IMG/VR virus record: IMGVR_UViG_3300045581_000900
Location: 47,940 to 111,939 of that record
DNA: 64,000 nt
DNA from: a virus
Reading direction: 5' to 3' (one strand)
A program made the position numbers and the translations under genes. Below the pieces are notes generated by a model that searched no databases, had not been told where the DNA came from, and worked only from the letters and a program-made list of their open reading frames with translations. Every line of letters begins with the position of its first letter. The first letter of the stretch is position 1. Below are positions 1,716 through 45,416 of this stretch, in pieces.

Positions 1716-1716
1716 T

Positions 1717-2649
1717 TCATTCTCCCGGAAAATCTAGTTTAGATATTTCTTCGGCGGAAGCGTCGAGGGTGCCGCCGGCGGCAAGAATCATCATTTCATC
1801 GCCGCGTAATTCTGCCGCTTGTCCATCAAAGGGTAACATTTTTGACCCCTCTGAATCCAGTTTCGTCCCAACTTTAAACGGCAACCCGACCAGCATCTGC
1901 CCAATATTGTCAATAATTGAGTGCTGAGCCTTGGTGGCGTTGTCGGTTGTACGTTCAATTTCAACGTATTTCACAAACGCTTCAATCAGCGGCAATTGCG
2001 TGTGACTGTTCACTGGGATGGTCACCGCCGCAAGGGCCGCCTTGTATTTCATGGTGTTGATGGCGAAATCCTGCAGGAATCCGCCGACTTCGTCAGCCGA
2101 CGTCGGTTTGGGCACGCTCGGGCCGCGATTGATCGCCGCATCAAGGGCGTATTCCCCGCCCTGCAGGCCGATCATCTTCCAGAGCAGGTCGTAATGCCGC
2201 TCGCTTAATCCCCGGGTCACAGCGTCGGCCAGAATGACGCCCTGTATGTAATCCGGGCGGTTGAGTTTTTCCCGCACGTCGAAAAAAACGTTTATGTAAG
2301 CCTCCACGACACCGACCTCGGTGCCCATTTTCTCCGCGATAGCCTCGTCGGTCTCGCCGGCCAAGACGCGGGCTTCTAGTGCCCACCGCATCTGGTTCTT
2401 GTCTTCGGACCAGATAGAGTACGCCCAGAACATGTCCGGGTCGCGGAGCATGACGTTGTATAAAGCGTCCTGCCGCCCAGCGGCCCGCTCTACGCGGCGT
2501 TTCGTCCGCAGAGCCCGCCGAATCCATGTAAAGCCTTCGGGGCCGTCAAGGCGTCGTGTTGTTTTTTGACCACCCGCGTCGATTTCACAGGCACGGGCCC
2601 AACGCCAGTGCGGAAATCGCTTGTTGTAGTCTTTGCAGGACTTAAGCAT
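1717..2649 (-). CDS. Hypothetical protein (310 aa)
   Basis: Long ORF tightly packed in the - strand operon. Confidence 0.8.
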   Translation of the reverse strand: MLKSCKDYNKRFPHWRWARACEIDAGGQKTTRRLDGPEGFTWIRRALRTKRRVERAAGRQDALYNVMLRDPDMFWAYSIWSEDKNQMRWALEARVLAGETDEAIAEKMGTEVGVVEAYINVFFDVREKLNRPDYIQGVILADAVTRGLSERHYDLLWKMIGLQGGEYALDAAINRGPSVPKPTSADEVGGFLQDFAINTMKYKAALAAVTIPVNSHTQLPLIEAFVKYVEIERTTDNATKAQHSIIDNIGQMLVGLPFKVGTKLDSEGSKMLPFDGQAAELRGDEMMILAAGGTLDASAEEISKLDFPGE

Positions 2650-2652
2650 GCG

Positions 2653-3042
2653 TTACCGCAGGGTCGGGGTGTCCACCGTGACCGAGAACACGTAGTTCTT
2701 CGTGCCTGTGCCAGCCGGCGTAATTTTCAGATATAAATACCGCACGGGCGTCGAGGGCTTGCCGTCCCGGTTCAGATACGACAGGTTTAAGTCCTCGTCA
2801 GCCGGCGTGGCCTGATCAAATGAAAGCAGCTTGAACGCGGCTTCGGGCAGCGTGCTGTTTGGGGCCTCGTCCCGCTTGCTGGTATACAACGTCGCGGTGA
2901 AATCGCCCGTGGCTCCGCCAGCGGCTTCTACAAGGCTGTAGCCCTTCAAAATACCGCGGTGCGGCATCGGGATATCAATAACCGACGCCTCGCCGGCGGG
3001 AACAGTAAACGACTTGCTACCAGACCAAACTGTGCTCGGCAT
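2653..3042 (-). CDS. Hypothetical small beta-rich protein, possibly structural
   Basis: ORF packing; alternating beta-strand pattern. Confidence 0.7.
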   Translation of the reverse strand: MPSTVWSGSKSFTVPAGEASVIDIPMPHRGILKGYSLVEAAGGATGDFTATLYTSKRDEAPNSTLPEAAFKLLSFDQATPADEDLNLSYLNRDGKPSTPVRYLYLKITPAGTGTKNYVFSVTVDTPTLR

Positions 3043-3051
3043 AATTCACCT

Positions 3052-5478
3052 TTAAATGTTAGCGGAAGGCCCAAGATCGACATCGCCGGCCGACTCCTCG
3101 GGGAACGGCTCGATGGTCTTCTGCTTGAGGAAGAGGATCACGTCGCCCAACATCTCGAACGCGTTGCGGAGCGAATCTTCCAGTTCCGGCATATCGGCCT
3201 TGCCGTAGCGATCGGCGAACCGGTCGCCATGCCAATAGAACATGAACAGGATGCGGCCCAGCTTGTCGAGACCCTTGGTAAGCTCACCCATGTAGCGGTC
3301 CACAAGGCCGTCATCCCGCACGGCCCGAAGCATGGTGCCGATCATGGCGGTGTCAAACACCTCACGCTGGCCAGTTTGGGCCGCCTGCATCACCTGCTGC
3401 ACGGCACCCTGATCCAGTTGCGTGTTGGGGTTGTACACGCTGCGATCCGTCTGGCTAGCCGACATACCCGGCACGGGCACACCGACGTCGATGCCAAGCT
3501 GCGTGGGGACGCTCGTCCCCATGATGGTCTCGCCGCCCATGACCGGCCCCGGGTCTGCCGGGGCTGTGGGGGCGTTCTGGATCATCATCGGCGAGCCATA
3601 CGGGTTTGCGTACTTCACGTGGCAGGCAAACTTCCGCTTAGCCTTGGCACGCGAAAGAATTTCGCGTGCATTTTTTTCGCGAAGGCCGTGCTTGGCGACC
3701 AGCGAAACAAGGGCTTGCTTCTCCGAAAGCTCCTTCTCGATCAGTTGTTGCTTCGGGCTGTGAATCTCGACGGCCGTGCCGTTGTGATACACCGTCAGGC
3801 TCGACAGCTTCTGCATGATTACAAGCTGGGCGTCAGCCAGATTGCCCGGCATCAGCGGCGGATTGTCGCTCTCGCCGCAGCCGCAGGAGCCCTGACCGCC
3901 CTCAGCCGCGTCGGCCACATCGTCTTCGCCCGGAGCACACTTTAAGAGCTTATACGTGCTCGGCACGAAGATGTCGCCCATGCTGGAGCGGATCGAGCCG
4001 CCGCCCTTGGCGTTTAAATGAATTCTGACGCCGTCGCGGTACTTGTCGTAGTTCAGCGGGTCGGTGTAGCAGCAGGGCGAAATTGAGCCCTTGGGCGGGA
4101 ACTTGGAGTGATCCTCCATGTGAACTTCGTAGGCATTTCCGCCGAACTCAGTCTCGCCGTACTCACGAATCACGCGGAACGGCACCGTGGTATCGCCCGA
4201 CTTGCAAATCGCCATGTACCGGCCGTTTTTGGAGAGACTGGTGGCGTCAGGCAGGCCGTTGAGCCATGTATCAAATTCGTCGCCTTCCACGCGGGAGAAG
4301 CAGAATACGTGGTCGGCACGGGTGTTGATCCACTCAGGCCTGCCTTCGGTACGGACGACGGTCACAAAGTCAGACCGCTTGGCGGGCCCTTGTGGATATA
4401 CCGCGACGTAGCACTTTTCGATCTCGCCCGGCTTGACTAGCACCATGTACAGGCCGCTCTGGGTGGGATTGAACAGTTTTTGCTCAACCTGAATCTGGTA
4501 CGGCACCGAGACGTTATCCCGATCCCGCTGGTCGAGAATAAGCACGCCATCCCGCAGCAGCTTTTCTTGGTCTTCCTCGGTATGCCCGGGCGGAAGAGCC
4601 GTCTGCGTCGTGGCGTCGTACGTAATGACTTTCAGCGTCTCTTTCGCCTTGGGCGTCTCCGGGGCGTCAGAAAGCACGCTGGCGATCTTAGTCGCGTTCT
4701 GGCGGGCACTGGCGGCACTGATAGCCTCGCTAATAACGTCTAAACCGTGGAATTCGTCAATCGCCTGAGCCAGATGCGGGGCGTACTGGCAGGTTTTAAC
4801 AAGAGCCGAAATCGTATCCATTCCGGCCTGCTTGAGAAACGCCTTGAGGTTCAGCTTGTGGCCGAGTTCTTCAAACGCCAGCTTCGTGTTCATCGTGGCG
4901 GTCTTGGCCAGTGTCGGCATCACCGCGGTCATCATCTCCTTCAGCGTCGGTTGGGCCGAGCCGAACTTGGCGGGGCTGCGGGAAAGCTGCGTAAAATCAG
5001 GCTGCCGCTGGCCGAACTGGGTGAGATTCTTATCAATGCCGCTGCCCAGAATGCTGGGCTTGCGGTTGACGAGATAGTTGACCCAGTTTTCCTTGAGCGG
5101 GACGAACATATCCTGATTCTTGATATACAGGAGTTCGTGGCCTTTGAGGTCGCCGTTCAGGAAGAAAACCGGGGCATACAGCCACATGGAGCCGACCTTG
5201 AACGCAAAAACACCGACAGCCTTGGTGTTTTCCCGATTGCGGTCGAGAAGTTGAAAGCCGATCTCGTGGTCCAAAAGCTTCGGAGCAGAATCCCGAAGAT
5301 AGGCGTGGGCCAGATTAGAAAAAGCCTGTTCAAACGCCACGTCGTCACCGCGGCCACCAATCTCGGCGGTTTTAGTGCGGTCGTGAGACCGGACGACGTT
5401 TAACCAATGCTTCCACGAGGCTTCTTTTGACTTTTTATTAAACACAGAGCCACCTCCATGCGGCAGATATTGAACCAA
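3052..5478 (-). CDS. Large probable virion/internal head protein with multiple K-x-A motifs (start may be GTG ~5445 after GGAGG)
   Basis: 808 aa ORF; TKTAE, LAKTA, TKLAF, LKQAG, TKIAS, VKYAN. Confidence 0.75.
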   Translation of the reverse strand: MVQYLPHGGGSVFNKKSKEASWKHWLNVVRSHDRTKTAEIGGRGDDVAFEQAFSNLAHAYLRDSAPKLLDHEIGFQLLDRNRENTKAVGVFAFKVGSMWLYAPVFFLNGDLKGHELLYIKNQDMFVPLKENWVNYLVNRKPSILGSGIDKNLTQFGQRQPDFTQLSRSPAKFGSAQPTLKEMMTAVMPTLAKTATMNTKLAFEELGHKLNLKAFLKQAGMDTISALVKTCQYAPHLAQAIDEFHGLDVISEAISAASARQNATKIASVLSDAPETPKAKETLKVITYDATTQTALPPGHTEEDQEKLLRDGVLILDQRDRDNVSVPYQIQVEQKLFNPTQSGLYMVLVKPGEIEKCYVAVYPQGPAKRSDFVTVVRTEGRPEWINTRADHVFCFSRVEGDEFDTWLNGLPDATSLSKNGRYMAICKSGDTTVPFRVIREYGETEFGGNAYEVHMEDHSKFPPKGSISPCCYTDPLNYDKYRDGVRIHLNAKGGGSIRSSMGDIFVPSTYKLLKCAPGEDDVADAAEGGQGSCGCGESDNPPLMPGNLADAQLVIMQKLSSLTVYHNGTAVEIHSPKQQLIEKELSEKQALVSLVAKHGLREKNAREILSRAKAKRKFACHVKYANPYGSPMMIQNAPTAPADPGPVMGGETIMGTSVPTQLGIDVGVPVPGMSASQTDRSVYNPNTQLDQGAVQQVMQAAQTGQREVFDTAMIGTMLRAVRDDGLVDRYMGELTKGLDKLGRILFMFYWHGDRFADRYGKADMPELEDSLRNAFEMLGDVILFLKQKTIEPFPEESAGDVDLGPSANI

Positions 5479-5490
5479 TCCCTTATCAAT

Positions 5491-7464
5491 TTACAGTGTT
5501 TTAGGCGGCGAGCCTAGAGGACCCGGCAGTGGACTTGCGGGGGACATGCGGGGTACTTGCGGGGTACTTGGGGGGTACTTGGGGGCTGGCTCCGGTTTCC
5601 AGCCGCTTGTTGTGCCAGAAACGCCGAATTGTTCGCCGCGGGCCAAAGCCGGCACATAGCTGCTCCCGGACGTATCACTGGCACGGCCGCGGTGCACGCT
5701 ATTAAGAAATCCGCGTTCCTGATACGACCCGAGCATTCTTGTCATCCAGTCGGGGTCGTTGGAGATATTCGCCATGCCACGAACCATTTCAGATTCAAAC
5801 GGCGGCGGTTCTTTGTGGGCTTGGATGTTTGTAATTCCGTACTTCTTCAGATTATCGGCCACGCTTTTTGTAATCTTCGTTCCGATCGAGTAATGCAGGG
5901 CGGGTTCTTCCAGATAGTGATTTGAAAGTGTCGCCGGGTTGCCCGCAATGGCCCCGTCTCTGGGTTTCCACGATCGTTCCAGCATGGAATACGGCACAAT
6001 GTCGTCCGGGGCGTAATCGCCGTACTCGTCATTGAGCCGCACATGATTAATCAAGCCGCGAGCGACCAGTTCGATATTCCGGCGGTGAGCGGTAATGCCT
6101 GAGTTCTTCAATACATCACGCATGGCAGAAACGAAATATCGCCGGCCCTCGCCGACGCCTTTGTGCCTGACGATCTCCGCCGGGTTGGGCATGCCATCAG
6201 ACAGCACGTCGCCGGCTTCGAGCATGTCGCCTTTCTTGACAGAGACCACGCGGTCAGCAGGGACGTAGTGCTCTTCGCCGTCCACCACGACGTACGAACC
6301 GCCTTGAGCCGCCGGGCGAATTTCCTGCACCCGGCCCTCTCGCTGGGCATGTGTGGCCCCGTCGGGATATTTCTTGGGCACCTGCACCAGAGCGTTAATA
6401 GCCTTGAAGCCGCCAATAGACTTGGCCCCGCCGACACCGCCGGAGTGCTTTGAACTAAGCTGAGACTGGCTGACCGGCTCCGAGAGAGCTTGAGCCGCGG
6501 CCACGCCCACATAGTCGCCTACGGGCGGCAAACGGCCCTTTTCGCGGTAGCCGACGTCTTTGGCGTACACGCCGCCGTCTTCAGGGCCGCCCACCGTCGG
6601 GCTGCGGACAAGGATGTCTTTGACGCCCATCTCTTTAAGGTCTTTGAGAATCTTGGGCGTGAGCAGCGTGTTTCGCTTGTAGGGGCCGATCGGGCGGGCC
6701 AGAAACGCCCCTTCGTTGTCGGGATCGTCCACATCGGAGGGCATACCGCGGTTCGAGGCTGTGGTCGCTCGCTCTTCGTCATCATCGTCGTCTGCCGTTA
6801 CAAGCAGGCGGTGAGCCATCTGCGTAAGCTGCTTGCCGTAGAAGCCGGCGTCGGCCGTGGCTGTTTTGACGTCAATGACGCCCTTGCGGGTGCCGAAGCT
6901 CGCGGCGAAGTATTCCGCCGGCGTTAAGCCTCGCCCGTAAGACCGCAGCACCGGCAGCGGAATCGGCTCGTCCTTGTGGTCGACGTACTGCAAATCGGCA
7001 CCGATCAACGAGTTCAGCGTAAACTTATTGCCGGACCCGCCGCCCAACACCTGCTGCACCAGCGGGTTATTGTTCTCTAACGCCTCGTTGTAAACATCGT
7101 CGATGAGTTTCTTCTGCGTATCTGCCGCCAACTGCAGAATCTTTAGCTGCCGCTCTTTTTCCGGCATGTTCGGCGTGGCCATGATGCCGCGGAGCTTTTT
7201 ACGCACGTCAAGTTCCGCCCGGCGGCTGGCAAACGTGGGCTTGATGTCTTTTAAGCCCATCGACAAACCGCCAGTCGAATACGCCACGTCGCGGGAGACG
7301 TCATGAATCTTCTTCATGACTTCGCGGTACTTGTCCGGGTGCCGCTTTGCTAGGTCCGTCGCCAGCGAGCCCATATTTTTCTTGTCGAGCACGCGGTTGT
7401 AATCCCGCATGTCTTCAGGCAGAGCTTCGTTGATGAGCAGTTGGCCTAGCGTCGTTTTTAACAC
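5491..7464 (-). CDS. rpoC: DNA-directed RNA polymerase beta-prime subunit, C-terminal part
   Basis: Starts at KTTLGQLL (=TTVGR); bridge helix GTRKGVIDVKTATADAGFYGKQL; trigger loop VGVAAAQALSEPVSQSQLSSKHSGG; AHRRNIELVAR. Confidence 0.93.
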   Translation of the reverse strand: MLKTTLGQLLINEALPEDMRDYNRVLDKKNMGSLATDLAKRHPDKYREVMKKIHDVSRDVAYSTGGLSMGLKDIKPTFASRRAELDVRKKLRGIMATPNMPEKERQLKILQLAADTQKKLIDDVYNEALENNNPLVQQVLGGGSGNKFTLNSLIGADLQYVDHKDEPIPLPVLRSYGRGLTPAEYFAASFGTRKGVIDVKTATADAGFYGKQLTQMAHRLLVTADDDDDEERATTASNRGMPSDVDDPDNEGAFLARPIGPYKRNTLLTPKILKDLKEMGVKDILVRSPTVGGPEDGGVYAKDVGYREKGRLPPVGDYVGVAAAQALSEPVSQSQLSSKHSGGVGGAKSIGGFKAINALVQVPKKYPDGATHAQREGRVQEIRPAAQGGSYVVVDGEEHYVPADRVVSVKKGDMLEAGDVLSDGMPNPAEIVRHKGVGEGRRYFVSAMRDVLKNSGITAHRRNIELVARGLINHVRLNDEYGDYAPDDIVPYSMLERSWKPRDGAIAGNPATLSNHYLEEPALHYSIGTKITKSVADNLKKYGITNIQAHKEPPPFESEMVRGMANISNDPDWMTRMLGSYQERGFLNSVHRGRASDTSGSSYVPALARGEQFGVSGTTSGWKPEPAPKYPPSTPQVPRMSPASPLPGPLGSPPKTL

Positions 7465-7473
7465 GGCAATTCA

Positions 7474-7698
7474 TTAGTTTTTTGGCGGCGGAGGAAGTTC
7501 ATTCACTGTCGGGGCCGGCGTGGTAACGCCGGCCATTTTTAACACCGTAGCAAAGTCATTGTCGCCGACAGCGGAATACACAATCCCCTCTGCCACGTGA
7601 GTTGCGACAAAGATCGGGTTCTTTAGGTCGTCTTCAATGACAACCGTATGAGCCTTCGTCTCTGCCGGAATTAAATTATGCTGCGTTTTAACCAGCAT
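7474..7698 (-). CDS. Hypothetical protein (74 aa) between the RNAP genes
   Basis: Overlaps upstream stop; operon packing. Confidence 0.7.
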   Translation of the reverse strand: MLVKTQHNLIPAETKAHTVVIEDDLKNPIFVATHVAEGIVYSAVGDNDFATVLKMAGVTTPAPTVNELPPPPKN

Positions 7699-8404
7699 GA
7701 TTCGTCAAACTCCGGCACAGGGCGGCGACGGCACTTGCTTTCGTTTGAAGATCGAACGTTTCTGGCGTCGACGGGGTTGAAGACACACTGGGATCAATCG
7801 GCCGCCCGATAGAGCGGGCAGCGTGCGTATCTACCGCGTCCCACCAGTTGGCCATCTTCGGGGCACCGGCGTCGGGCGGCATAGGAGCACCGCCAGCCGC
7901 GGCCGGATCACCGCCCGGCGGAGCCGCAGGCGGAGGAGCCATTGGACCGCCGGGAAGGGCGGTTTCCGCCGGCGGAGCACCGGTTGTGCCGGGCGGCAGC
8001 ACCAGCGATTCAGGAGCAACCTGCACGCCCATCGCGTTCATGATCGCCGTAAGTTGCTGCTGCATGTTGTAAAGCCGGTAATCGAGCATTTGCATCATCT
8101 GCTCAGGCTTAAGTTTCTGACCGCCTGCGGCACCACCAGCGGGAGCCGGGGCTGGCTGTGCGGGCGGCAGAGCACCCAGCATCGACGGGTCCATCATTCC
8201 CGGCGGAACAGCACCGCCAGCCGCCGCAGGGTCGCCAGCCGGAGGAGCCGCACCCATCGCTGCCTGCATCGGGTCAGCGGGCGGAACAGCACCTTGAGCC
8301 GCGGCAGCCGGGTCCATACCGCCACCGGGAGGCACCACAGCCGACTTTTCAAACAGAGCCCGCTTGGCGAGCGATAACAATTCGGGATTTACCGTATAGG
8401 ACAT
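7688..8404 (-). CDS. Pro/Gly/Ala-rich low-complexity protein with a central helical segment
   Basis: GGAGG SD; EKSA and PKMA motifs; central KLKPEQMMQMLDYRLYNMQQQL. Confidence 0.8.
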   Translation of the reverse strand: MSYTVNPELLSLAKRALFEKSAVVPPGGGMDPAAAAQGAVPPADPMQAAMGAAPPAGDPAAAGGAVPPGMMDPSMLGALPPAQPAPAPAGGAAGGQKLKPEQMMQMLDYRLYNMQQQLTAIMNAMGVQVAPESLVLPPGTTGAPPAETALPGGPMAPPPAAPPGGDPAAAGGAPMPPDAGAPKMANWWDAVDTHAARSIGRPIDPSVSSTPSTPETFDLQTKASAVAALCRSLTNHAG

Positions 8405-8427
8405 GACTACCTCCGTGTAATATCAAG

Positions 8428-11400
8428 TCAAGGCTTATCTTCTACGATGTGAACCGGCGTGTCCACATCAATCTCGCCGCGTCGGTACGCCGCGAGAGCG
8501 TCCTTTTTGCTGCGGTAGACCCGTGGCTTGGAGCGGTTGTTCATTTTGCTGGAAGCTAAGTATACACCAGTCTGGTAATCTTTATTCGGCACATAATGGG
8601 CTTTGAAGTTCGCCGTGGCAAAAAGGTTCTTGCTCGGCAGCATCTTTTCCACGGCTTCTTTTGCCGCTTCTTCGGTACTGGGGACGTGGTACTGCATGGC
8701 GTCCCCGTCGAAATCAGCCCCGAAACCCTTGGTAATTACCGGATTTACTTCCATAACTTTGTTTTTAGTCAGCCGCGGATAAAACGCCATCACGCCGTAG
8801 CGGTGCAGCACAGGAGCCCGGTTGATCACAATGGGCTTGGCGTTCATCTGCGTGTTTAACTCGTCAAAAGCGGCTTTATTTTTGTCTTCTACAGCCCGCA
8901 GGGCGTTCATTCGGGGCATTCCGCGGCGGACGAGGCCCCGGACGACGAACGGCTTGTAAATCTCCCACGCTTTTTCCTCGGGGAGAGCGACTTCGTCCAT
9001 GTCGAGGTCGGGATTCGGGGTAATCACCGCCCGCCCCACAAGGTCGACGGTGCTGGAGAGCAGTTTTCGCTGCATGGTGCCGAATTTGGGGCTGTCGCCG
9101 AAAATTTTCGACAAGAAACCGCGGACGTTACGTTCGACGTTCTTGGGGTGCTGCGGATCACCAAGACCCGTCACGGCTTTCATCGAGTCATACAGAGATA
9201 AACGCTCGTTACCATAATCGGCAAACGTCCCGGAGGCTTCTTTTAAGACGTTATTGGAGTCGAGCAGTTCTTTGTAGAGATAATTCGCGTCATCCACGAG
9301 CGGGAGTTTCTTGGAGCCCATAGTCGAAACAGGGCGGAAAGCCGGCGGCAGCACACCCACTTTCGTGAGCATCCAGTCTTTCGGGTGCACGTTGGTTGTT
9401 TCGGCACCTTTTAAAAAGCCCAACCGGCGAACAGCGGCGTCTCGAACTGTCTTGCGGCCTGATTTGATGTCTTCGCGAGCCTGCTCAATTGCCTTCGGCA
9501 GATTAATGCTCTTCAACGCATCATGAATGGCCGCAGGTCCCGTTTTGTCGCCTAACTTGTCTTGGCCGGCCAGAATGCCGCGGAATTGCTTTTCGGTAAG
9601 CCCAAGAACGCGGCGAATGGGTTCTTCCATGATCGGGTTGGGCATCGGCTCGTGTAACGTGATCTTCGCCCACCGATTGCCGCCATGACCGCCCGTAAGC
9701 GTCTCATCGAACAAGCCGCCTTTGATGGGCTTGAGATTGCCTTTCCAGTCGACGGTCTCGGCACTGGTGATTTCACGCTCGCCGGCTAGTTCGTCGACGG
9801 ATTTGTCTGTTAAAGCCATGATGTGCGTCTTAGTTCCCGTACGCACTGTATTCACGCCAGACGCCCGCAGTTGATTCACAAACTTTTCGTAGACGTGCGG
9901 AACTTTGGGGAGCGGCGGGTCGTAACCGGCCATGAATTGCGTCCAGTACTCAGGATTAGCTTGGCCGCGTACCATCTTGGAGTCGCGAACTACTTTGCCG
10001 GCACCGTGGGAAAGCAAAGCTCCCAGTTCGAGCATGCCGACGCGTTTAGCCCCTTCTGATCCGCCCTTGGCTGGTGTGCCTTCGGCTGTATAGCCGCCGG
10101 TCGAGCGTCCTTGGCCCTTGGATTCGGCCGTGTGATGGAGTTTCATGAAGAACCGGTGGCCCGTTAAGATTCCCTTGATCTTCCGGCCAGATTCGGGGTC
10201 AGTCAGGTCTTCCGTGTCAGAGAGCCCGTGTTTGGCAAGTTCCTGCTGGGCGAACTCAATTAAGTCCTTCTGGTCGTCGAAATCTTTGATCTTGAACGGC
10301 TGCCCGGTCTTAGCCGCGACTTTGCCCAGTGCCGCCTCAACGATCTGGGCGGGGTTTACACGGCTAATAAGTCCGAGGGGGCTGACCAGTATCTCCATCG
10401 GGTTTCCGTCTTTATCGGTCGGCATCTGCTGATCTGGGACGATTTCAGATACCACGCCCTTGTCGCCGAATCTGCCGGTGATCTTGTCGCCCACTTCCAT
10501 CTGGGCTTTTGATTTCACGACAACCGAAACACCCTTCTTGGTGTGCTCGACGTCCGTAACAATCCCGGGAGAGTGGTGCTCCCACGTCAGAGTCTCGTTC
10601 GCAAACGCACCGCCGCGGCCTCGATGCACCTTGCCGTATACCTGTTCGCGTTTCTTGGCCACGAGAACGAGCGGGTCACCGAAGTTCACAACGGTGCCTT
10701 TCTTGATCGCCCCGTTGTCGTCGAAGCTCTCCAGCATCTTCTTGTCGTACTCGGACGGGAACAACGACATGAACGCCTTTTTGCCGACGTGGGTGTTGTC
10801 GTCCCACTCGGCTTCGTGCTGATACATGTGCTGGCTGGTAAGTCTCTTGGCCGCAGACTCAGAGATCACCACGGCGTCTTCGTAGTTTCTTCCGCGGAAC
10901 GGCAGATAGCCCACGCGAAGGTTTAATCCAAGAGCCGCGGAGCCGTTCTTATCGGTAAAGTTGGACGTGGCAATAAGCTGCCCGGGCTTGATAGTGTCGC
11001 CGGGCTGCACAGTCGGCGTCTGTGTCCAGAACGTCTTCCGATTGAACGGCATGTCGTTATACAAGTCGATAGTCTGCTTTTTGCCGTCTTGATCGCGAAT
11101 GATGATCTCGTCTGGCGTAATAGCTTCGACCTTGCCGGCAAACTGTGATTTAATCGCTCCCAGTTTCTCGCCCATCTCGTCTTCGTGCGAGGTGCCGGGC
11201 AGGTCGGCTTTTTCCGACTGCACAAACGGTGACTCGGCGTTTTCCAGCGGGAGAGCCTGTGTAAACATACGGCTGCCCATGATGACACGCTGGCCCTTTA
11301 CCATGGACTTCATCGGCACCATGTTTGTGAGAGCCGAGAACGTGCTGTCCATGTTGGGTACGGTGTACTGGGCGTCTTTTTTGGGCACGTACTTAATCTT

Positions 11401-12864
11401 GCCGTTCACCAGTGCCGCGACCATCGGAAGATCGGACTTCTCTTCGCCGGGGAACATCAGCGGCATGTCGGCGAGTTCCTGCGGCGTCTTGTACTCAGTC
11501 TCGCCCGTCTGGGAGTTCTTCACGGGCACGACAAACGTGTGCAAATTCTGGGCTGACTTGCGGGCACCGGCGGCAAATCGCATATCGACGCCTACCTTGC
11601 CGCTCTCGGGCGTGCGGAGATAGTCGATAAAGCCGAAATGACTCGGCTGCACGCTGCGGGATTCGGCGGGAACGGCGTCGAGCGAGCCGATGCCGCCTTC
11701 GCCCAGTCGCGTGACGCGGGTCTGGTGATCGAAGATTTCAGCCGGGTTGATCTCTTCGAGGCTGGAACCAAGACCTGACCCGATAAGGGCCGCGGTGATC
11801 GACTTGTTAAACACGCCGGAAGGAATGTGATCCAGTGACTTTTTGGCCGTGGCTTTCCAGAGCAGTTGCCGCAGGGCTGTCTTGTCTTTGACGAACCGCT
11901 CCGAGATCAAATCCTCGGGGCCGAAGACCTGCTGATACGTCATGCTGTCGCGGTCGTCGCTGTCGGCTTCTTTACGATTGACGGCGATCAGCTTCTTCGT
12001 GATGTCGAGAATCGCGTCGGGGGTGAGATTCTTGTAGGGCTTGCCGAGCGTGCGTTTGGTGACCTCTTCGTCCAACTCTGTCTTGTTAAACTCCGCCGCG
12101 ATGGCCTTGATCTTGGCGATCTGGTCTGCGTTGGCGTCTGGTTTGAAGACAAGGCGTTGATAAAGTTTGTCGAGCGTGCCGGCATCGCCCTTCTGCATGT
12201 TGACGGCTGTGATCTCATTGCCCCACGCCTCCCGCATCTGCTTGTCGGTGACGCCGAGCGTCTTCAGCAGGGGCATGAGCGGAATCTTGGCTTGGCCGAT
12301 TTGAATCTGGAACTCGCCGGTCTTGGGGTCCATGTAATACCGGTGCGAGCGACCTTTGCCGGGCAGAGTATTGACGTGCGACTCCAGTTCGCCGTTCTCC
12401 TTCTCGCGGGTGAACACGCCCGGCCGCAGACGGAGTTGGTGGGCAAGGGTGTATTCAACGCCTTTGTTCACGAACGTGCCGGAGTCGGTGAGATACGGGA
12501 CGTTGGCGATCGTAGCTTGGCGGGACGCGACCGGCTGCTGTGTTTTGTTGTCTATGAGCGTCCACGTGCCGGTGAGCTTCCGGGCCAGAGAGCCACGCGT
12601 GAGCACGGCCTTCTTTTGGTCCTTGCGGCTGAACCGTTCGGGGCCGGCGTAGCCGACGTTCTGCAACTGCAGCGTGTACAGATCGTTTTGAATCGGCTCG
12701 ATGCTCGACGCACTTCGCAGAGCTTCGTTGAAGATATTGTCGCGAAGAGCGGGTACGTCGCCGAACGCTCGCGTCTGCGGCTGAGCGATCGGCTGCTTTG
12801 GCAGCGGCGGAGCAAGCGGCGGAAGTTGCGGGGCTGGTTGCAGCGGATCAGGCATGGCTCTCAC
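8428..12864 (-). CDS. rpoB: DNA-directed RNA polymerase: beta subunit fused to the N-terminal part of beta-prime
   Basis: Beta motifs HFGFIDYLRTPESGKVG, GRNYEDAVVISE, GDKITGRFGDKGVV, MKLHHTAESKGQGRSTG; then beta-prime motifs VLPPAFRP, NRAPVLHR and catalytic GADFDGD (8701-8721). Confidence 0.96.
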   Translation of the reverse strand: MRAMPDPLQPAPQLPPLAPPLPKQPIAQPQTRAFGDVPALRDNIFNEALRSASSIEPIQNDLYTLQLQNVGYAGPERFSRKDQKKAVLTRGSLARKLTGTWTLIDNKTQQPVASRQATIANVPYLTDSGTFVNKGVEYTLAHQLRLRPGVFTREKENGELESHVNTLPGKGRSHRYYMDPKTGEFQIQIGQAKIPLMPLLKTLGVTDKQMREAWGNEITAVNMQKGDAGTLDKLYQRLVFKPDANADQIAKIKAIAAEFNKTELDEEVTKRTLGKPYKNLTPDAILDITKKLIAVNRKEADSDDRDSMTYQQVFGPEDLISERFVKDKTALRQLLWKATAKKSLDHIPSGVFNKSITAALIGSGLGSSLEEINPAEIFDHQTRVTRLGEGGIGSLDAVPAESRSVQPSHFGFIDYLRTPESGKVGVDMRFAAGARKSAQNLHTFVVPVKNSQTGETEYKTPQELADMPLMFPGEEKSDLPMVAALVNGKIKYVPKKDAQYTVPNMDSTFSALTNMVPMKSMVKGQRVIMGSRMFTQALPLENAESPFVQSEKADLPGTSHEDEMGEKLGAIKSQFAGKVEAITPDEIIIRDQDGKKQTIDLYNDMPFNRKTFWTQTPTVQPGDTIKPGQLIATSNFTDKNGSAALGLNLRVGYLPFRGRNYEDAVVISESAAKRLTSQHMYQHEAEWDDNTHVGKKAFMSLFPSEYDKKMLESFDDNGAIKKGTVVNFGDPLVLVAKKREQVYGKVHRGRGGAFANETLTWEHHSPGIVTDVEHTKKGVSVVVKSKAQMEVGDKITGRFGDKGVVSEIVPDQQMPTDKDGNPMEILVSPLGLISRVNPAQIVEAALGKVAAKTGQPFKIKDFDDQKDLIEFAQQELAKHGLSDTEDLTDPESGRKIKGILTGHRFFMKLHHTAESKGQGRSTGGYTAEGTPAKGGSEGAKRVGMLELGALLSHGAGKVVRDSKMVRGQANPEYWTQFMAGYDPPLPKVPHVYEKFVNQLRASGVNTVRTGTKTHIMALTDKSVDELAGEREITSAETVDWKGNLKPIKGGLFDETLTGGHGGNRWAKITLHEPMPNPIMEEPIRRVLGLTEKQFRGILAGQDKLGDKTGPAAIHDALKSINLPKAIEQAREDIKSGRKTVRDAAVRRLGFLKGAETTNVHPKDWMLTKVGVLPPAFRPVSTMGSKKLPLVDDANYLYKELLDSNNVLKEASGTFADYGNERLSLYDSMKAVTGLGDPQHPKNVERNVRGFLSKIFGDSPKFGTMQRKLLSSTVDLVGRAVITPNPDLDMDEVALPEEKAWEIYKPFVVRGLVRRGMPRMNALRAVEDKNKAAFDELNTQMNAKPIVINRAPVLHRYGVMAFYPRLTKNKVMEVNPVITKGFGADFDGDAMQYHVPSTEEAAKEAVEKMLPSKNLFATANFKAHYVPNKDYQTGVYLASSKMNNRSKPRVYRSKKDALAAYRRGEIDVDTPVHIVEDKP

Positions 12865-13976
12865 ACTGCCGGGGTGTTTTGATTGCCTAACGCCATCGCC
12901 TTTACCTGAGCCACTTCACGCGGGTCGATCCACGCTCCGGGCAAAGAAGTTAACCGCTCACGAGCTTTGCGGGCCCGGGCAAGTTGCTTTGCCGCCGAGT
13001 TTTCTTGTGTCTTGTTATACATGTATGTGCCGCCGACACCTGCTGCTCCCAGACTCGCTAACGCGGTCAGAGCAACGGGCAGCGTGATACCGACGTCAGC
13101 AAGCGTGCTGCCCCAGCCCTCGTTTTGCTTCAAGCCGTTGTTAGCTCCGTTCCCGCCGCCGCCAGAGCCAGCCCACGCTTCGGGGCTGGTGTGCACGTAA
13201 TCCCAGAAACTAGCTCCCTTTTCTTTATACCCGTTAAACGCCGCATCCAAGGCTGCCGCTGCTTTTTCGTCGGCCACAAGCGTTTTGAAATATTCGTTTC
13301 GGGCGTCTTGGATTGCGTTGACGTTTTTTTCTTCTTTTGCTTTTGTATCGCGGCTGTCGAGCAGCGTGTTGGCCAATGCACCGCCGGCAACAAGGCCCGC
13401 AGGCACTGCCGCATACCGTCCGGCCATCGCCAGCCCCTCGTAAAAATTATTGGCGGCTTGCGGTATGTCAGACGTTGATTTTTGCTGCGACTCCGTCGCA
13501 AGTCGGCCAAGATTTGTTAACCCTAGCCCGCCAGCGAGACCAACGCCGCCGCCCATCGCGGCTCCTGAGAGAGCCGCCCGAAACTTATCTTTCTTCGCTC
13601 GATTGGCGTTCAGGTACGCCCCGATCCCGGCTCCCGCTACTGGCAGGCCGTAAAATAAGGCCTTGTCCAGCGGCGATAACGGACCAGCGGAATCCCACGT
13701 TGAAGACAGCTTTTCTACTGGTTGTTCGGCGGTTACGTCTTCGGGCAGAAAGCCAGACGTGGCAATCGCGTTATAGTCGGGGGCTTTTGGAAGGTGATCG
13801 TCCACAAGCTTTTTCTTAGTCCTTTTGAGCAGGTGAAACAGCCCCATGCCGCCCATACCTAACGCAGCGTTTGTTAAAAAATTGCCAACGGCCGCGGCAT
13901 GGTGCCGATCCCAAATCCGTTGGTCGTTTATGGCCCGTTCCGCGGCGGCGGCGGCCGGATTTGCTTGTTTCTTCAT
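12861..13976 (-). CDS. Glycine-zipper multi-TM probable virion protein
   Basis: Several GxxxG hydrophobic helices; KKQA, EKAA, EKGA motifs. Confidence 0.75.
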   Translation of the reverse strand: MKKQANPAAAAAERAINDQRIWDRHHAAAVGNFLTNAALGMGGMGLFHLLKRTKKKLVDDHLPKAPDYNAIATSGFLPEDVTAEQPVEKLSSTWDSAGPLSPLDKALFYGLPVAGAGIGAYLNANRAKKDKFRAALSGAAMGGGVGLAGGLGLTNLGRLATESQQKSTSDIPQAANNFYEGLAMAGRYAAVPAGLVAGGALANTLLDSRDTKAKEEKNVNAIQDARNEYFKTLVADEKAAAALDAAFNGYKEKGASFWDYVHTSPEAWAGSGGGGNGANNGLKQNEGWGSTLADVGITLPVALTALASLGAAGVGGTYMYNKTQENSAAKQLARARKARERLTSLPGAWIDPREVAQVKAMALGNQNTPAV

Positions 13977-13983
13977 AATGCAC

Positions 13984-14331
13984 CTACTTGGGCGGAATCA
14001 TGCCATAGACCTGACACCACTCCAGCCAGACTCTGTAATGTTTTTTTTCTTCGTCCCAGTGGTTTTCACGTTTTTGCAACATGTACCAGCCGTTAACAAT
14101 CTTATCATTTATGTCGTCAAATTCGTTTTTTTGCGACACGTCCCATAGTTCAAACAGTTTCGACTTGAAATCGAGCCGAAAATCTATGCCTTCTAGCTCT
14201 TCCTGCTTTAAGTTCGGTGTGACGCCGGCTGCGGCGAGTACGGGGAACCCTTCAGGCGTCCCGGGCCAATGAAGCCGATTATTGCCGTGCTGCTCCCCCG
14301 CAACTTCACCGAAGTACTTCCTTGTACTCAC
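13984..14331 (-). CDS. Hypothetical protein
   Basis: ORF with SD, operon packing. Confidence 0.75.
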   Translation of the reverse strand: MSTRKYFGEVAGEQHGNNRLHWPGTPEGFPVLAAAGVTPNLKQEELEGIDFRLDFKSKLFELWDVSQKNEFDDINDKIVNGWYMLQKRENHWDEEKKHYRVWLEWCQVYGMIPPK

Positions 14332-14345
14332 AAATCACTCCGTTA

Positions 14346-14744
14346 TTAAAGGCCCTGAGCTTTCCGATACTTCAGATATGCCTGCCGAGCTTTTAAACGA
14401 TCGGTGTACGCCTTGTAGGTGTTCGCGAGTTCTTGAGCCTTGATATCGTCTTCCGTGACATCCGGCTCGTTGAGTTTTGCCAGCCCGTAGCCACCTGCGG
14501 CACCAGCGGCCAAACCGAGCCCGACCGGCACTCCGACGGCTAATGTGGCGACCGGCTTGGCCGCCTCCACAAGGGCTTTTGCCCCGCCACTAATAGCAGA
14601 CCCTACGCCCAGTAAGTCAAGAGATGCTTTTTCAAGCCAGACGGCTCGCTCGCAGGCCGCCTTTTGCGATAATTTTTCTTCACGGCAGCGGGCGGCGAAC
14701 CCAAGCTGAAAAGCTGTCTTGGCGTCAATATTGGCAAAATCCAT
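14346..14744 (-). CDS. Glycine-zipper membrane protein
   Basis: KTAFQLGFAA N-terminal motif; GLGLAAGAAGGYG. Confidence 0.75.
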   Translation of the reverse strand: MDFANIDAKTAFQLGFAARCREEKLSQKAACERAVWLEKASLDLLGVGSAISGGAKALVEAAKPVATLAVGVPVGLGLAAGAAGGYGLAKLNEPDVTEDDIKAQELANTYKAYTDRLKARQAYLKYRKAQGL

Positions 14745-14745
14745 G

Positions 14746-15237
14746 TCACTCTCCCGGCAGAATTAATTTTTTGGGGCCTGTGTTCGGCCCACCCATTGTA
14801 AAATCTGGGGCGACATGTTTTCCAGTGTCTTTTCCGAGCGGAAGCATGCCGGGCAGGCGAGTTGAAAAATCAGCCGCACTCGCCAAAGAAATACGGCTTT
14901 TTCGGTTCGGGCGGTGCTTTGTAAACCACTCGTCGACCTTGGGGTCGTTGCGGTCGCCCTGCTCTTTGGCCTCGTTTGTGCAGGCGACCATGTCCTCAAT
15001 CGCCTTGATAAGCTCGCTGCGGTCGGCCGAGAGCCAGACGGCCTTGCTGGGATTTTCAGCGGCAATCGAGCGGAGCCGGCGGGCTTCGTCGGACAGGGCC
15101 TGAGCCCGCAAGAGAAATTCTTTACGCGTTAAAACGTAAAACTCACCGGTATCTTCGTCATGCAGGCAGACAAAACCGTTTTCGGCGTAAAACTTAAGCC
15201 CGCGGAACGTGTAACACTTGCCGGTGACCTTTTGCAT
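14746..15237 (-). CDS. Hypothetical protein
   Basis: ORF packing. Confidence 0.75.
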   Translation of the reverse strand: MQKVTGKCYTFRGLKFYAENGFVCLHDEDTGEFYVLTRKEFLLRAQALSDEARRLRSIAAENPSKAVWLSADRSELIKAIEDMVACTNEAKEQGDRNDPKVDEWFTKHRPNRKSRISLASAADFSTRLPGMLPLGKDTGKHVAPDFTMGGPNTGPKKLILPGE

Positions 15238-15316
15238 CCTTGCACCTTTGTCGCATGTATCGGACCATAGAACGCGTAGGCACGTGTATATCAGCCGTTA
15301 CGCGTTTCGGCAACGG

Positions 15317-15664
15317 CTATTGCACCAGCCGTGTGCCTACCGGTGCCGGCTGCTTGTACCGATCCGGGTCTGATTTTGGTGTCTTAACGCCCGGAGCGGC
15401 GGGATAGATATCAAGTGTGTCACCTGTCGGCCCTTCGCAGTCGGGGCACTTGGTCCACGGGTTATTGCTGTCGCCGGTCCGCACACGGCCAGTGCCGTTG
15501 CAGTTCGTGCAGTCCTTCGTCGGCACCTTCGGCTTTGTGGGGGCCGCACTGGGAAGCGTGGCGGCGTAAGCAACATGAGCCGCAATCTCGCCGACGTAGT
15601 CGGTGTTGTCGGCGTGGTTGACTGGAAACAAAAACGCCAACACCGTCAAAAGCCACTTCCACAT
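15317..15664 (-). CDS. Exported protein with DnaJ-type Zn knuckle
   Basis: Signal-like N-terminus; CTNCNGTG...CPDC. Confidence 0.7.
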   Translation of the reverse strand: MWKWLLTVLAFLFPVNHADNTDYVGEIAAHVAYAATLPSAAPTKPKVPTKDCTNCNGTGRVRTGDSNNPWTKCPDCEGPTGDTLDIYPAAPGVKTPKSDPDRYKQPAPVGTRLVQ

Positions 15665-15733
15665 AGCAGTATCCTTTGTTTAGCCATCTTGTGCGGAACG
15701 ACATAACTTTCTGCTGTCATTCCGCTCGCAACG

Positions 15734-16759
15734 TCAAATCTTACCCCGTGCCCCGTAGCTCTTCAGTTTTTTGGGCGGCCAGCCGTTCACGCCGGAGAAC
15801 GCGATCATTGAGCGGTTCTTCATATCAGACCACTTTGACCAGAACGAGCCAACCGGAATGTCATAGTTGGTGCCGTAGATACGCGTCCCGCCGCGGTTCC
15901 ATTCACCCCACGAATTTTGAATTAACACCAGCGGCTCACCATAAAGTTTAATAATCTCGGGGCGGTCGTCGACTCCGAGATAGGCAAGGGCGTGGGCCCA
16001 GCCCTTCGATGTCCGCTTAGATACGCCATTTTCATCTCTGACGTCAGACCACGATTCGCCGCCACAGCTACTAACACAGTAACCGTTGGCCAAGAAGTCG
16101 CGGAGTTGTTCAAAGCTCGTGACTTCCGTCGCGGTGCGGATTAAATGATTTTTGCCGATCTCAAGCCACGAGTCGGGCGGCGTTCGCGAGCCGTAAATAC
16201 CGGCGTTGCGAGCACTGTACTTTGTGAGATCAACGCCGATCTCGTCGTACTTCTTTCGAAGCCACAGGCCGCTTTCTTTCAGCACGACCTGAGCCGCGGC
16301 CCCGCAACTCCATCCGTCCCCACCATGCCGACGCCAGTTGTAAATGGCTTCGGTGCTGAGCACGCCGAAGGCGATGGCAACCTCGCTGACTTCAGGGGCA
16401 CCTTCTAACTTGCCGCTGACCTCGTCGGGCTTGCCGCTGGTGATCTCGCAGCACATGGTGCCGAGACCGGCGTTTCGCGTCGACCAACTGACACAGTCGC
16501 CGCGGCCCTGACCGCCACCGGGTAAACAGCCGGGATACAAAGAAAGAATTTCAAGAACCGGAAGGCTTAACTTGCCCTTGCCGCTGTCTTCCAGCCCGAA
16601 TGACTGGCAGGCCATCGCACCATCGGGAATACCGCCGCTGGAGCGGACAAAGTCCCACAGTTCTTCGTTGGCCCTGGGATCGGAGTACGCCCCGAGAAAA
16701 CCACTCTCGTACGCTTTGACGACGTCAAAGACATCTGTGAAAAACAGTTCTTCAGCCAT
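15734..16759 (-). CDS. Papain-like (C1 family) cysteine peptidase
   Basis: Q-G-R-G-D-C-V-S-W; WAHAL; LIQNSWGEW (Q, C, H, N catalytic set). Confidence 0.8.
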   Translation of the reverse strand: MAEELFFTDVFDVVKAYESGFLGAYSDPRANEELWDFVRSSGGIPDGAMACQSFGLEDSGKGKLSLPVLEILSLYPGCLPGGGQGRGDCVSWSTRNAGLGTMCCEITSGKPDEVSGKLEGAPEVSEVAIAFGVLSTEAIYNWRRHGGDGWSCGAAAQVVLKESGLWLRKKYDEIGVDLTKYSARNAGIYGSRTPPDSWLEIGKNHLIRTATEVTSFEQLRDFLANGYCVSSCGGESWSDVRDENGVSKRTSKGWAHALAYLGVDDRPEIIKLYGEPLVLIQNSWGEWNRGGTRIYGTNYDIPVGSFWSKWSDMKNRSMIAFSGVNGWPPKKLKSYGARGKI

Positions 16760-16770
16760 CGTCGTCCTCC

Positions 16771-17226
16771 TTAACGAGCCGACGCGATAATCGTGTCGCA
16801 GGCTTTGACGAGCTTGGCCTGTATCAGCGGCGTCACTGCGTTTACTACACTGGCGTCCGTATCTTTGTCCTGCACGGCTTTATAGAACACAGCCTCGATC
16901 GCCTCGTCGAGTCCGGGGTACTTGCCCGGCGGCTCAATAGCAAGGGTCAGTGTTTCACCGTGCACTTCTTCCCACTTCTCTGTCGTGTTCACTCGCTTGC
17001 CGTTGTCTTTGTTCAAGACAGCCTTCAAGCCGCGGTACACGCTGACGATGCGAGCCTTGTCGGCGGCGGAGGCGTTCGCCAAGAGTTTCACGATTTCGGC
17101 GTCGGCAGGCACATTGACCTCGGGCGTCGACTCTGCCGGTTTTGAAAACGATGGCAGCGAAACGCCGTTCGGGTACACAATGGCTACTGCCAGCACCAGC
17201 CCAGCAACCCATACAAGCTTCTTCAT
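16771..17226 (-). CDS. N-terminally anchored or exported helical protein
   Basis: MKKLVWVAGLVLAVAIV signal/TM. Confidence 0.75.
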   Translation of the reverse strand: MKKLVWVAGLVLAVAIVYPNGVSLPSFSKPAESTPEVNVPADAEIVKLLANASAADKARIVSVYRGLKAVLNKDNGKRVNTTEKWEEVHGETLTLAIEPPGKYPGLDEAIEAVFYKAVQDKDTDASVVNAVTPLIQAKLVKACDTIIASAR

Positions 17227-17256
17227 GAAAAGTACTCCCGGTCGGGTATAGGTAGG

Positions 17257-17538
17257 TCAGGCTAAGGGCTTCTTCTTGGTGTGCTCGACGATCACCCGCA
17301 GCAGAGCCGTGCAGGCATCGACGCCCTCGGGGCAGTTTTCAGCCGCCAGCTTGTCGCGAAGCTCGGTGACCGAGATCAGGTCGTTGACGATCGTCACAGC
17401 AATCGAAGGCTGCACGTCTGCATCGGCGGAGCCGCCGGCCTTCAGCCTGCCGCGAACAAACGCCAACAATTCCTTCCGATACACGACCAGCAGCAGCGTC
17501 ACAAAAACGCCGGCCGCTACCAACTGAAATGTCGTCAT
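17257..17538 (-). CDS. Single-TM membrane protein
   Basis: N-terminal TM helix. Confidence 0.7.
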   Translation of the reverse strand: MTTFQLVAAGVFVTLLLVVYRKELLAFVRGRLKAGGSADADVQPSIAVTIVNDLISVTELRDKLAAENCPEGVDACTALLRVIVEHTKKKPLA

Positions 17539-17568
17539 AATTTAATCTCCTGTAACCTAGCTATTTTA

Positions 17569-39934: not shown

Positions 39935-40399
39935 TCACGCGGTTGTGGTGATCTGGTCTAAAAGAGGTTTGTTGACGTCAACAGCGTCATACTTCTTGGT
40001 GACGGACAGCGGCAGAAACCCCAGAGCAGTCTGTTTCACGCCGGATAAAATTTTGTCGATTTCAGGATTATACTGCGAAAGCGTTTGGCTTGCATAGTTG
40101 GATAACGCACTCGTGCCGGCCCCGATGGCCGCTCCTTGTAACGCCCCCATCCACGGATTTCGCTTCTTTTTCGCGATCACATTGCCGTGGGCGTCGAGCT
40201 TTTCATGATAGCCCGGCCAGAGTAATCCCCGGCCGAAACCCAAGCCGCCGCCGACCGTGGCCGCGATTAACAACTGCCGCAGAGCCTTGTAGTCATGGGG
40301 CAGCCGCGGATCGACGCCATACATGTGCTCAAACTGGGTTTTATATCCGTCCCAGAAGGACTCGGCGATCTTTTCACCGAACTCGCGTGGCGTACTCAT
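39935..40399 (-). CDS. Glycine-zipper hairpin protein
   Basis: TPREFGEKIA; PG...DAHG...KKKRNPWMGALQG. Confidence 0.78.
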   Translation of the reverse strand: MSTPREFGEKIAESFWDGYKTQFEHMYGVDPRLPHDYKALRQLLIAATVGGGLGFGRGLLWPGYHEKLDAHGNVIAKKKRNPWMGALQGAAIGAGTSALSNYASQTLSQYNPEIDKILSGVKQTALGFLPLSVTKKYDAVDVNKPLLDQITTTA

Positions 40400-45387: not shown

Positions 45388-45416
45388 ATATGCCCGGATT
45401 ATGTTGGTTATTTAGC
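45388..45416 (-). promoter_or_regulatory. Phage promoter-like motif GCTAAAT-N15-GGCATAT (copy 1)
   Basis: Exact bipartite match in four intergenic sites. Confidence 0.8.

Follow-up and report, generated by a model that had tools for sequence, protein, structure and literature searches.

A bacterial-type phage RNA polymerase with beta joined to half of beta-prime: layout, proposed packaging and origin

Is an RNA polymerase in which beta runs without interruption into half of beta-prime, with the other half of beta-prime on a second polypeptide, a real enzyme, and if so, how might it be used and how might it have arisen? This question is raised by the genes at positions 5491-12864 of the stretch of 64,000 nucleotides analyzed here (the window), which forms the final 64 kb of the 111,939-bp IMG/VR record IMGVR_UViG_3300045581_000900 (CheckV completeness 55%). 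The source is an uncultured freshwater phage with a genome of ~200 kb. Nearly all window genes are carried by the minus strand, and the intergenic gaps are tiny. Taken together, the sequence comparisons described below moderately favor the reading that the phage has a working two-chain bacterial-type RNA polymerase of its own, which would be derived by fission, directed by a sigma factor and packaged in the virion.

Structure and spread of the polymerase genes

The gene for the first chain, termed beta-beta'(N) (8428-12864, minus strand), encodes 1478 residues that comprise the full beta subunit and beta-prime to ~90 residues beyond its catalytic loop. Its probable start is the ATG at 12855, three codons in, and the database version thus has 1475 residues. 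Pfam profiles matched Rpb2_3 at residues 369-431, Rpb2_6 (PF00562) at 575-926 (3.5e-53), Rpb1_1 at 1131-1211 and Rpb1_2 (PF00623) at 1341-1406 (4e-24). Beta chains of solved bacterial structures in the PDB matched the protein up to residue ~1005-1030, and beta-prime chains matched it from 1081-1087 to 1473. The GDKG motif occupies residues 800-803 in the beta barrel region (Rpb2 domain 6), with K802 invariant. The beta/beta-prime junction (9817-9873, minus strand; residues 998-1016) contains no linker domain. In the translation, the N-terminal strand of beta-prime (IMALTD) starts ~10 residues past QLRASG, the last beta motif, at residue 998. The catalytic Mg loop GADFDGD (8701-8721, minus strand) corresponds to residues 1382-1388, of which D1384, D1386 and D1388 are invariant in alignments A1 and A3. 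The chain terminates ~90 residues beyond this loop, and both double-psi beta-barrels therefore reside on one polypeptide. An earlier note on this DNA had described a 1478-residue chain leading from the beta motifs through QLRASG into the catalytic loop of beta-prime, and the open reading frame (ORF), the Pfam matches and the PDB alignments all agree with that description.

The remainder of beta-prime is encoded by a second gene, beta'(C) (5491-7464, minus strand; 657 residues), 960 nt downstream of the fusion gene. The protein matches Rpb1_5 at residues 179-477 (1.2e-22) and aligns with Mycobacterium smegmatis beta-prime 664-1184, across the bridge helix, the trigger loop and the C-terminal region. 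By alignment, the bridge-helix region lies at 6799-6894 (minus strand; residues ~191-222, GTRKG...ADAGF) and the first trigger-loop helix at 6427-6483 (minus strand; residues ~328-346, SEPVSQ...KHSGG). The trigger loop has neither SI3 nor another large insert. The start codon is GTG, an assignment secured by an in-frame TGA three codons ahead of it, and the N terminus reads VLKTTLGQ, so TTLGQ opens the second chain. The gene is where the note had put the bridge helix and trigger loop, namely two ORFs downstream, and the division of beta-prime does fall just ahead of TTxGR.

The fused-and-split layout is real and common to hundreds of environmental phages. Logan contigs from two freshwater runs, which may be the source samples, covered window positions 5400-12900 (contig of 45.6 kb, depth 60) and 5400-11773 (14 kb, depth 198) with 0 differences and 0 gaps across the junction. 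Fragments with 90-100% identity were also present in one wastewater run and one lake run. A stop or frameshift at the junction, which the note had taken as the sign of an assembly artefact, did not appear; the frame is open in the independent contigs and in the relatives. In database comparisons, the half of the fusion chain that spans the junction matched more than 1600 proteins. The best 120 of these share 80-100% identity with it, mostly measure 1450-1485 residues apart from fragments and intein-containing forms, and stand on contigs of up to 212 kb. The best cluster representatives at 50% identity (150 of 150) align across the junction, and ~120 of them could be traced to within 15 residues of the same C terminus; the other ~30, mostly with an intein near residue 1390, were not traceable to the end by the alignment chain. 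Of 70 IMG/VR loci retrieved by means of the second chain, 69 have beta'(C) as a separate gene, with the fusion gene upstream on the same strand. In most split genomes, 0.9-5 kb of other genes separate the two halves. The only deposited phages with both chains are Salmonella phage Arash (gp206, 1525 residues, and gp216, 606 residues; OQ632216) and Vibrio phages D69, D148 and D181, all with the same two-chain layout as the window. Exactly one polymerase set is encoded by each of five relatives with complete genomes (205-235 kb; CheckV 100%), two of which have terminal repeats. An artefact of assembly, a pseudogene or mis-binned cellular rpoBC DNA is a vanishingly improbable source of the layout, and this reading is refuted for practical purposes, because the same open frame recurs in hundreds of independent assemblies and in four isolated phages, because the Logan contigs at depths 60 and 198 are without differences, and because the phage enzymes share only 24-29% identity with bacterial enzymes and form a separate, fully supported clade. 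As judged from its sequence, the polymerase is almost certainly real and functional.

Cellular RNA polymerases are thought to need an alpha dimer to unite beta and beta-prime, and the zinc sites of their beta-prime subunits are near-universal. At the site of the beta-prime zinc-binding domain (9655-9720, minus strand), the phage protein reads GGLFDE...GGHGGNR...KITLHEP in place of a four-Cys finger. We take this segment to be the counterpart of the Escherichia coli order GLF...C-x-C...C-x2-C...GHIEL; the invariant columns of alignment A1 at this site are G1049-D1053 and W1065. The finger is absent throughout the phage family, both from split enzymes and from relatives with a single-chain polymerase (see below). 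The two window chains contain 0 Cys versus ~26 expected at the genome mean of 1.2% (P ~4e-12); bacterial enzymes of the comparison set contain 11-30. A second zinc site (C-x51-58-C-x6-C-x2-C, CQKCYG) was lost in the window's freshwater subclade. It is retained by Arash and D69, which differ from the window in this respect, and by the single-chain forms, whose exactly four Cys all come from it. The first residue of the catalytic motif also varies: it is Gly in the window (GADFDGD), Ala in Arash and D69 (AADYDGD), and Asn in most single-chain forms. In E. coli, the near-invariant Asn that opens NADFDGD helps to select ribonucleotides over deoxyribonucleotides. The Gly in the window enzyme may relax substrate choice. 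Other large ORFs without Cys were seen in the window at 1-1715, 20151-21896, 32150-34030, 38035-39927 and 40396-41802, and outside it at G000:C1:20859-25895. Absence of Cys may be a mark of proteins that exit the capsid via the tail.

Two spacer ORFs, neither with a Pfam or PHROG match, lie between the polymerase genes. One encodes a Pro/Ala-rich protein of 238 residues (7688-8404, minus strand) and occurs at the same place only in relatives with at least 68% identity in beta'(C) and in a few at ~55%. The other encodes 74 residues (7474-7698, minus strand) and was undetectable in relatives at ~50% identity; its stop precedes the beta'(C) start by 9 nt, and translational coupling of the two is possible. 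Since the spacers are not conserved beyond close relatives, a subunit role is unlikely, and we rejected them as core subunits, including the idea of an omega-like 74-residue protein. Proline-rich tails of 40-55 residues, which bacterial enzymes do not have, were noticed at the N terminus of the first chain (12700-12864, minus strand) and the C terminus of the second (5491-5620, minus strand). They differ among relatives.

Proposed packaging and transcription partners

In the enzyme that we propose, the first chain would supply all of beta together with the clamp and catalytic barrel of beta-prime, placing the active site within one polypeptide, and the second chain would contribute the bridge helix, the trigger loop and the remainder of the cleft. 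The covalent link between beta and beta-prime may substitute for omega and for the alpha dimer as assembly platform. A sigma-70-family factor of the phage would guide the enzyme to promoters. Produced along with the proteins of the particle, the enzyme would enter the capsid, reach the cell together with the DNA and start transcription without the host polymerase.

By analogy with Arash, virion packaging is plausible, and the balance is somewhat in its favor. In mass spectrometry of Arash virions, gp206 gave the most spectra of all proteins (3516 spectra, 128 peptides, 100% coverage), and there were 1210 spectra for gp216, 1149 for gp218, 1148 for the helicase gp217, 877 for the portal protein and 467 for the sigma factor gp10 (PMC10585845). 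A weak homologue of gp218 is encoded directly downstream of beta'(C) by an 808-residue gene (3052-5478, minus strand), which holds its place across the clade (synteny in more than 60 loci). A tblastn search with it gave 27% identity to Arash gp218 (E 2e-5) and also found gene 0266 of D69, and the protein matches no Pfam or PHROG family.

The best-surviving alternative, to which we assign a minor but appreciable chance, is that the polymerase is real but unpackaged. It would be made after infection and transcribe middle and late genes with the phage sigma factor, early genes would be left to the host enzyme, and its presence in Arash preparations would be carry-over. The Arash proteome indeed comprises 116 proteins that include metabolic enzymes (ribonucleotide reductases), and its authors allow for carry-over of abundant non-structural proteins (PMC10585845). 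Moreover, no window neighbor of the polymerase genes is assignable to a structural family. However, the spectra of gp206 and gp216 exceed or equal those of the capsid and portal proteins, and each complete genome holds a single polymerase set. The chains are Cys-free like other candidate cargo proteins, and some single-chain relatives are fused to Peptidase_M23, as found in virion-borne wall hydrolases. The polymerase genes also lie deep in a long one-strand array, with a promoter-like motif no nearer than 45.4 kb. These observations argue for the packaged enzyme over carry-over.

The note had stated that no alpha, omega or sigma is recognizable in the window. This was true of the window, but not of the genome with respect to sigma. 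The 112-kb record contains no match (E ≤ 1) to the Pfam profiles for alpha (PF01000, PF01193) and omega (PF01192). In the five complete relatives, PF01000 and PF01192 likewise gave nothing, and each control genome (14 of 14) had matches. A sigma-70-family gene encoding 269 residues was located at G000:C1:16688-17497, 31 kb upstream of the window. Its regions 3 and 4 exceed the Pfam cut-offs, and sigma region 2 had no Pfam match in the window or the 112-kb record. An AlphaFold model of the protein (predicted local distance difference test score 69) aligns over its full length, in 240-280 columns, with sigma-S, sigma-A, sigma-B and WhiG from holoenzymes. One gene with sigma-70 region 3 is present in each of the five complete relatives, and the longest contigs listed with sigma homologues (207,520, 208,853 and 205,044 bp) are of the same size as those of the polymerase.

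From these comparisons, we lean toward a pairing of the polymerase with the phage's own sigma-70-family factor. Alternatively, the phage sigma might redirect the host polymerase, and the phage enzyme might find promoters via another factor, as phiKZ/AR9 enzymes do. Phage sigma factors that act on the host polymerase are well known (PMC7598289), and the lack of a Pfam region 2 would fit such a role, which we nevertheless regard as rather unlikely here. Sigma and polymerase occur together in five of five complete relatives, and Arash sigma gp10 is present in virions alongside the polymerase. In addition, the clamp-helix segment of the phage beta-prime aligns with that of bacterial enzymes, and the sigma model matches, in full length, sigma factors solved in holoenzymes.

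Several points weigh against the proposed enzyme as a whole, beyond the carry-over in Arash already mentioned. Alpha and omega were sought with Pfam profiles, which a very divergent substitute could escape. The phage sigma might serve the host polymerase instead. The Arash proteins, on which the packaging analogy is based, are only ~32% and ~26% identical to the two window chains. The note had derived packaging from a position of the polymerase among putative virion genes. A virion block is not evident from the window, where the neighbors of the polymerase genes match no family, and that claim of context could not be upheld; the packaging idea itself has gained indirect support from the abundance of the Arash homologues in virions. 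A search for the T4 gp23-type capsid protein (PF07068), a trait of mReC phages (PMC7481178; see below), gave no match in the 55%-complete record, with no control genome for this profile.

Genes and motifs related to transcription were noted elsewhere in the window. An SNF2/SF2 helicase gene without Cys codons lies at 32150-34030 (minus strand; PHROG 62, 3e-47). In two relatives, SNF2 helicase genes lie between the two polymerase genes (L049, 6582-8069; L050, 4913-8401), and in Arash, the gene for helicase gp217 adjoins the second-chain gene. A similar association of helicase and polymerase genes has been reported in phiKZ-like phages (PMC7824862), and bacterial RapA offers another parallel. 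The motif CTAAATA-N14-GGCATAT occurs in 3 exact copies and 1 copy with one mismatch versus 0.15 expected (45388-45415, 46599-46626, 47822-47849 and 59886-59913, all on the minus strand). Judged from sequence, its geometry resembles that of sigma-28-type promoters. No copy was found between 45.4 kb and the polymerase genes, which may thus sit in a very long transcription unit. A consensus promoter scan of window positions 1-18000 returned 3 promoter-like sites versus 6.5 by chance. In the same region, there were 37 terminator-like sites versus 24.6 by chance, none of them placed convincingly between the polymerase genes on their coding strand.

Comparison with known polymerases

Cellular rpoB-rpoC fusions, as in Helicobacter and Wolbachia, join the C terminus of beta to the N terminus of beta-prime in one frame. 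The window enzyme shares this single frame. In contrast to it, the cellular fusions carry the whole beta-prime on the chain, keep their zinc sites and have alpha and omega as partners, and the window enzyme groups with a phage clade away from the bacteria sampled.

The cut in beta-prime also has known counterparts. Like the window enzyme, cyanobacterial and plastid rpoC1/rpoC2 have beta-prime cut in the loop after the barrel; unlike it, they have TTxGR on the first piece, a separate beta, adjacent pieces, and alpha, omega and zinc sites. In the alignments, E. coli beta-prime 544 is matched by residue 1467 of the protein P0001. This stretch is also covered by the cyanobacterial gamma subunit, which extends ~60 residues past the end of the first chain, and residue 5 of cyanobacterial rpoC2 aligns with residue 23 of the window's second chain. 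The window and cyanobacterial cuts hence lie within ~20 aligned residues of each other, on opposite sides of TTxGR; the cuts in Arash and D69 are within ~5 residues of the window's cut.

Enzymes of the phiKZ/AR9 type resemble the window enzyme in being phage-encoded, in lacking alpha and omega, and in the same cut in beta-prime, which in both the virion and the non-virion enzyme is split after the barrel at the cyanobacterial position (PMC7598289). One version of these enzymes is packaged in the virion, and their genes are accompanied by a linked gene for an SF2/SNF2 helicase (PMC7598289, PMC7824862). Their beta is in two to three pieces that are never joined to beta-prime, and there are two enzyme sets and no sigma (PMC7598289). 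The window, in contrast, has an intact beta and, in its genome, a sigma gene, and its complete relatives have one set each. The note had held that phiKZ-type enzymes are split differently and are far more diverged. The former applies to beta but not to beta-prime, where the site is the same (PMC7598289). The latter was borne out, in that phiKZ-type matches, which covered between one quarter and one third of the query, reached E values of only ~1e-10 to 1e-21, versus 1e-72 for bacterial beta. The cut site is thus recurrent, and the novelty lies in its combination with the beta-beta' join. Cuts in the loop that follows the beta-prime barrel are known from at least three lineages.

A further group, mReC, consists of environmental tailed phages whose polymerases are alignable to cellular beta and beta-prime and branch outside bacteria (PMC7481178). 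The enzymes listed have separate beta (920-1563 residues) and beta-prime (902-1370 residues) proteins (PMC7481178). They were selected by two hits of at least 800 residues together with NADxDGD, and fusion is discussed only for crAssphage (PMC7481178). Because the window enzyme is a fused chain with GADFDGD and a second chain of 657 residues, it would fail this filter.

Among the phages with the layout of the window, Arash and D69 are similar to it in the absence of the zinc finger, in a phage-encoded sigma and in their membership of one clade in the tree described below. In Arash, unlike in the window, a 4.7-kb interval with nine other genes, mostly of opposite orientation, separates the two polymerase genes. 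The Arash paper names the proteins beta and beta-prime, and the fusion is unmentioned (PMC10585845). Reviews of jumbo phages treat only phiKZ-type and YonO-type enzymes (PMC7598289, PMC7824862). In literature accessible without subscription, no description was found of either beta-beta'(N) with beta'(C) or a single-chain bacterial-type phage polymerase. The note's remark that the combination was not recognized is in keeping with this, although the sequences themselves are already public.

A polymerase that is readily aligned to the bacterial enzyme (E 1e-72) while being without alpha, omega, zinc site and Cys, yet apparently with sigma, would, among bacterial-type enzymes that use sigma, be the simplest yet recorded. 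It offers a practical object for assembly studies, for cryo-electron microscopy and as a compact two-gene transcription module. Within the family, the enzyme comes in single-chain and two-chain arrangements, a natural comparison of where a multisubunit polymerase tolerates cuts. Should the enzyme be packaged, a sizeable and abundant group of ~200-kb phages (freshwater, marine and enteric) would begin infection without relying on the host polymerase, with consequences for host takeover and for resistance to defenses acting via host transcription. Arash, a cultured member that infects Salmonella Typhimurium ATCC 14028, makes the packaging and transcription readings testable.

Single-chain relatives and the origin of the cut

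The relative L071 (IMGVR_UViG_3300005077_001095) contains a single ORF of 2044 residues with all six RNA polymerase Pfam domains, and the two window chains abut on its product with ~7 residues between them. A search with this protein gave, among the matches listed, at least 120 homologues, mostly of 2000-2080 residues, with 35-70% identity and on contigs of up to 228 kb. These single-chain phage polymerases share with the window enzyme the seamless junction, the lack of a zinc finger and the location on phage-sized contigs, and form its sister clade at ~32% identity; they differ in being uncut, in having the four Cys of the second zinc site and NADFDGD, and, in some members, in carrying Peptidase_M23.

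A maximum likelihood tree was calculated from 57 concatenated enzymes (14 split, 22 single-chain and 21 bacterial; 1978 columns, LG+G4, short search). The phage enzymes stood apart from bacteria with a Shimodaira-Hasegawa approximate likelihood ratio test value of 100, as a clade of their own. This covers the bacterial part of the phylogenetic comparison that the note had suggested. Split forms made up one clade (87) and single-chain forms another (92), and the two clades were sisters. Within the split clade, Arash and D69 formed one deep branch and the window's group the other. Each layout changes once on the tree. Two features of the tree add to the points raised above against the reading: the support of the two sister clades is below 95, and the bacterial sample is skewed toward Patescibacteria and Bacillota, with mReC and phiKZ-type enzymes left out.

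Beta-prime is uncut in the bacterial outgroup, which makes the cut the derived state, and since each layout changes only once, the simplest history begins with fusion and zinc-finger loss and continues with a single fission. In the common ancestor, beta would have been joined head to tail to beta-prime and the beta-prime zinc finger lost. The lineage of the window phage, Arash and the Vibrio phages would then have acquired one cut in the loop after the beta-prime barrel, and the sister group would mostly have retained everything on one chain of ~2020 residues. On the sequence evidence, fusion first and fission later is the order that we favor, with some reservation. The reverse, in which the two-chain layout is ancestral and the single-chain enzymes are later re-joined halves, is improbable in our estimate. 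In its favor, the tree by itself gives the change no direction, since the layouts form sister clades, and neighboring genes commonly fuse. However, given the uncut bacterial outgroups, re-joining implies two events, a cut and a re-join, versus one for fission. The 0.9-5 kb between the halves in most split genomes would make re-joining harder, and the single-chain forms retain the ancestral second zinc site and NADFDGD.

With the fission history as a component, a broader classification can be put forward, although we consider it doubtful and hold it more tentatively than any of the readings preferred above. Next to phiKZ-type and mReC enzymes, it may represent a third and very large kind of multisubunit RNA polymerase in phages that is essentially undescribed. 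Such an enzyme would be sigma-70-dependent, would have both catalytic barrels on one chain, would do without alpha and omega (and, in this clade, without metal sites and Cys), and would be borne in the capsid with sigma and an SNF2 helicase, independent of the host. It would have become two-chain by a single fission of a single-chain ancestor, at a loop cut independently in cyanobacteria, plastids and phiKZ-like phages.

Further observations were made on the single-chain relatives. Two of their polymerases lie on contigs of metagenome-assembled genomes assigned to Leptolyngbyaceae (L075, 162 kb) and Bacteroidales (L076, 204 kb). These contigs are probably phage genomes binned with their hosts and thus potential host leads. 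Peptidase_M23 (PF01551) was found on some single-chain relatives of ~2000-2800 residues (P0328, P0385, P0387, P0388, P0393 and P0394), where it is listed first in the Pfam order, suggesting an N-terminal place. In these proteins, a cell-wall hydrolase and a polymerase share the same polypeptide.

A homing endonuclease was considered as the origin of the cut. None was detected in the ten ORFs scanned between the two genes of eight distant relatives, which included the SNF2 helicases of L049 and L050; such an origin thus shows no present-day trace. The fusion gene itself contains no intein or homing endonuclease in the window. In relatives, it is rich in inteins and LAGLIDADG homing endonucleases, with up to 4 per gene and proteins of up to 3350 residues (P0125-P0274, e.g. 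P0174 and P0143), and it is interrupted by such elements in Vibrio phages D181 and D148. The hot spots of insertion correspond to window residues ~420, 611, 658, 795, 835, 914, 938, 1062, 1256 and 1388-1394, the last just past the catalytic loop. In one relative (L070:15-4783), the chain breaks off precisely at residue 1388 and a LAGLIDADG domain is present in the following ORF, so that this break may represent a split intein.

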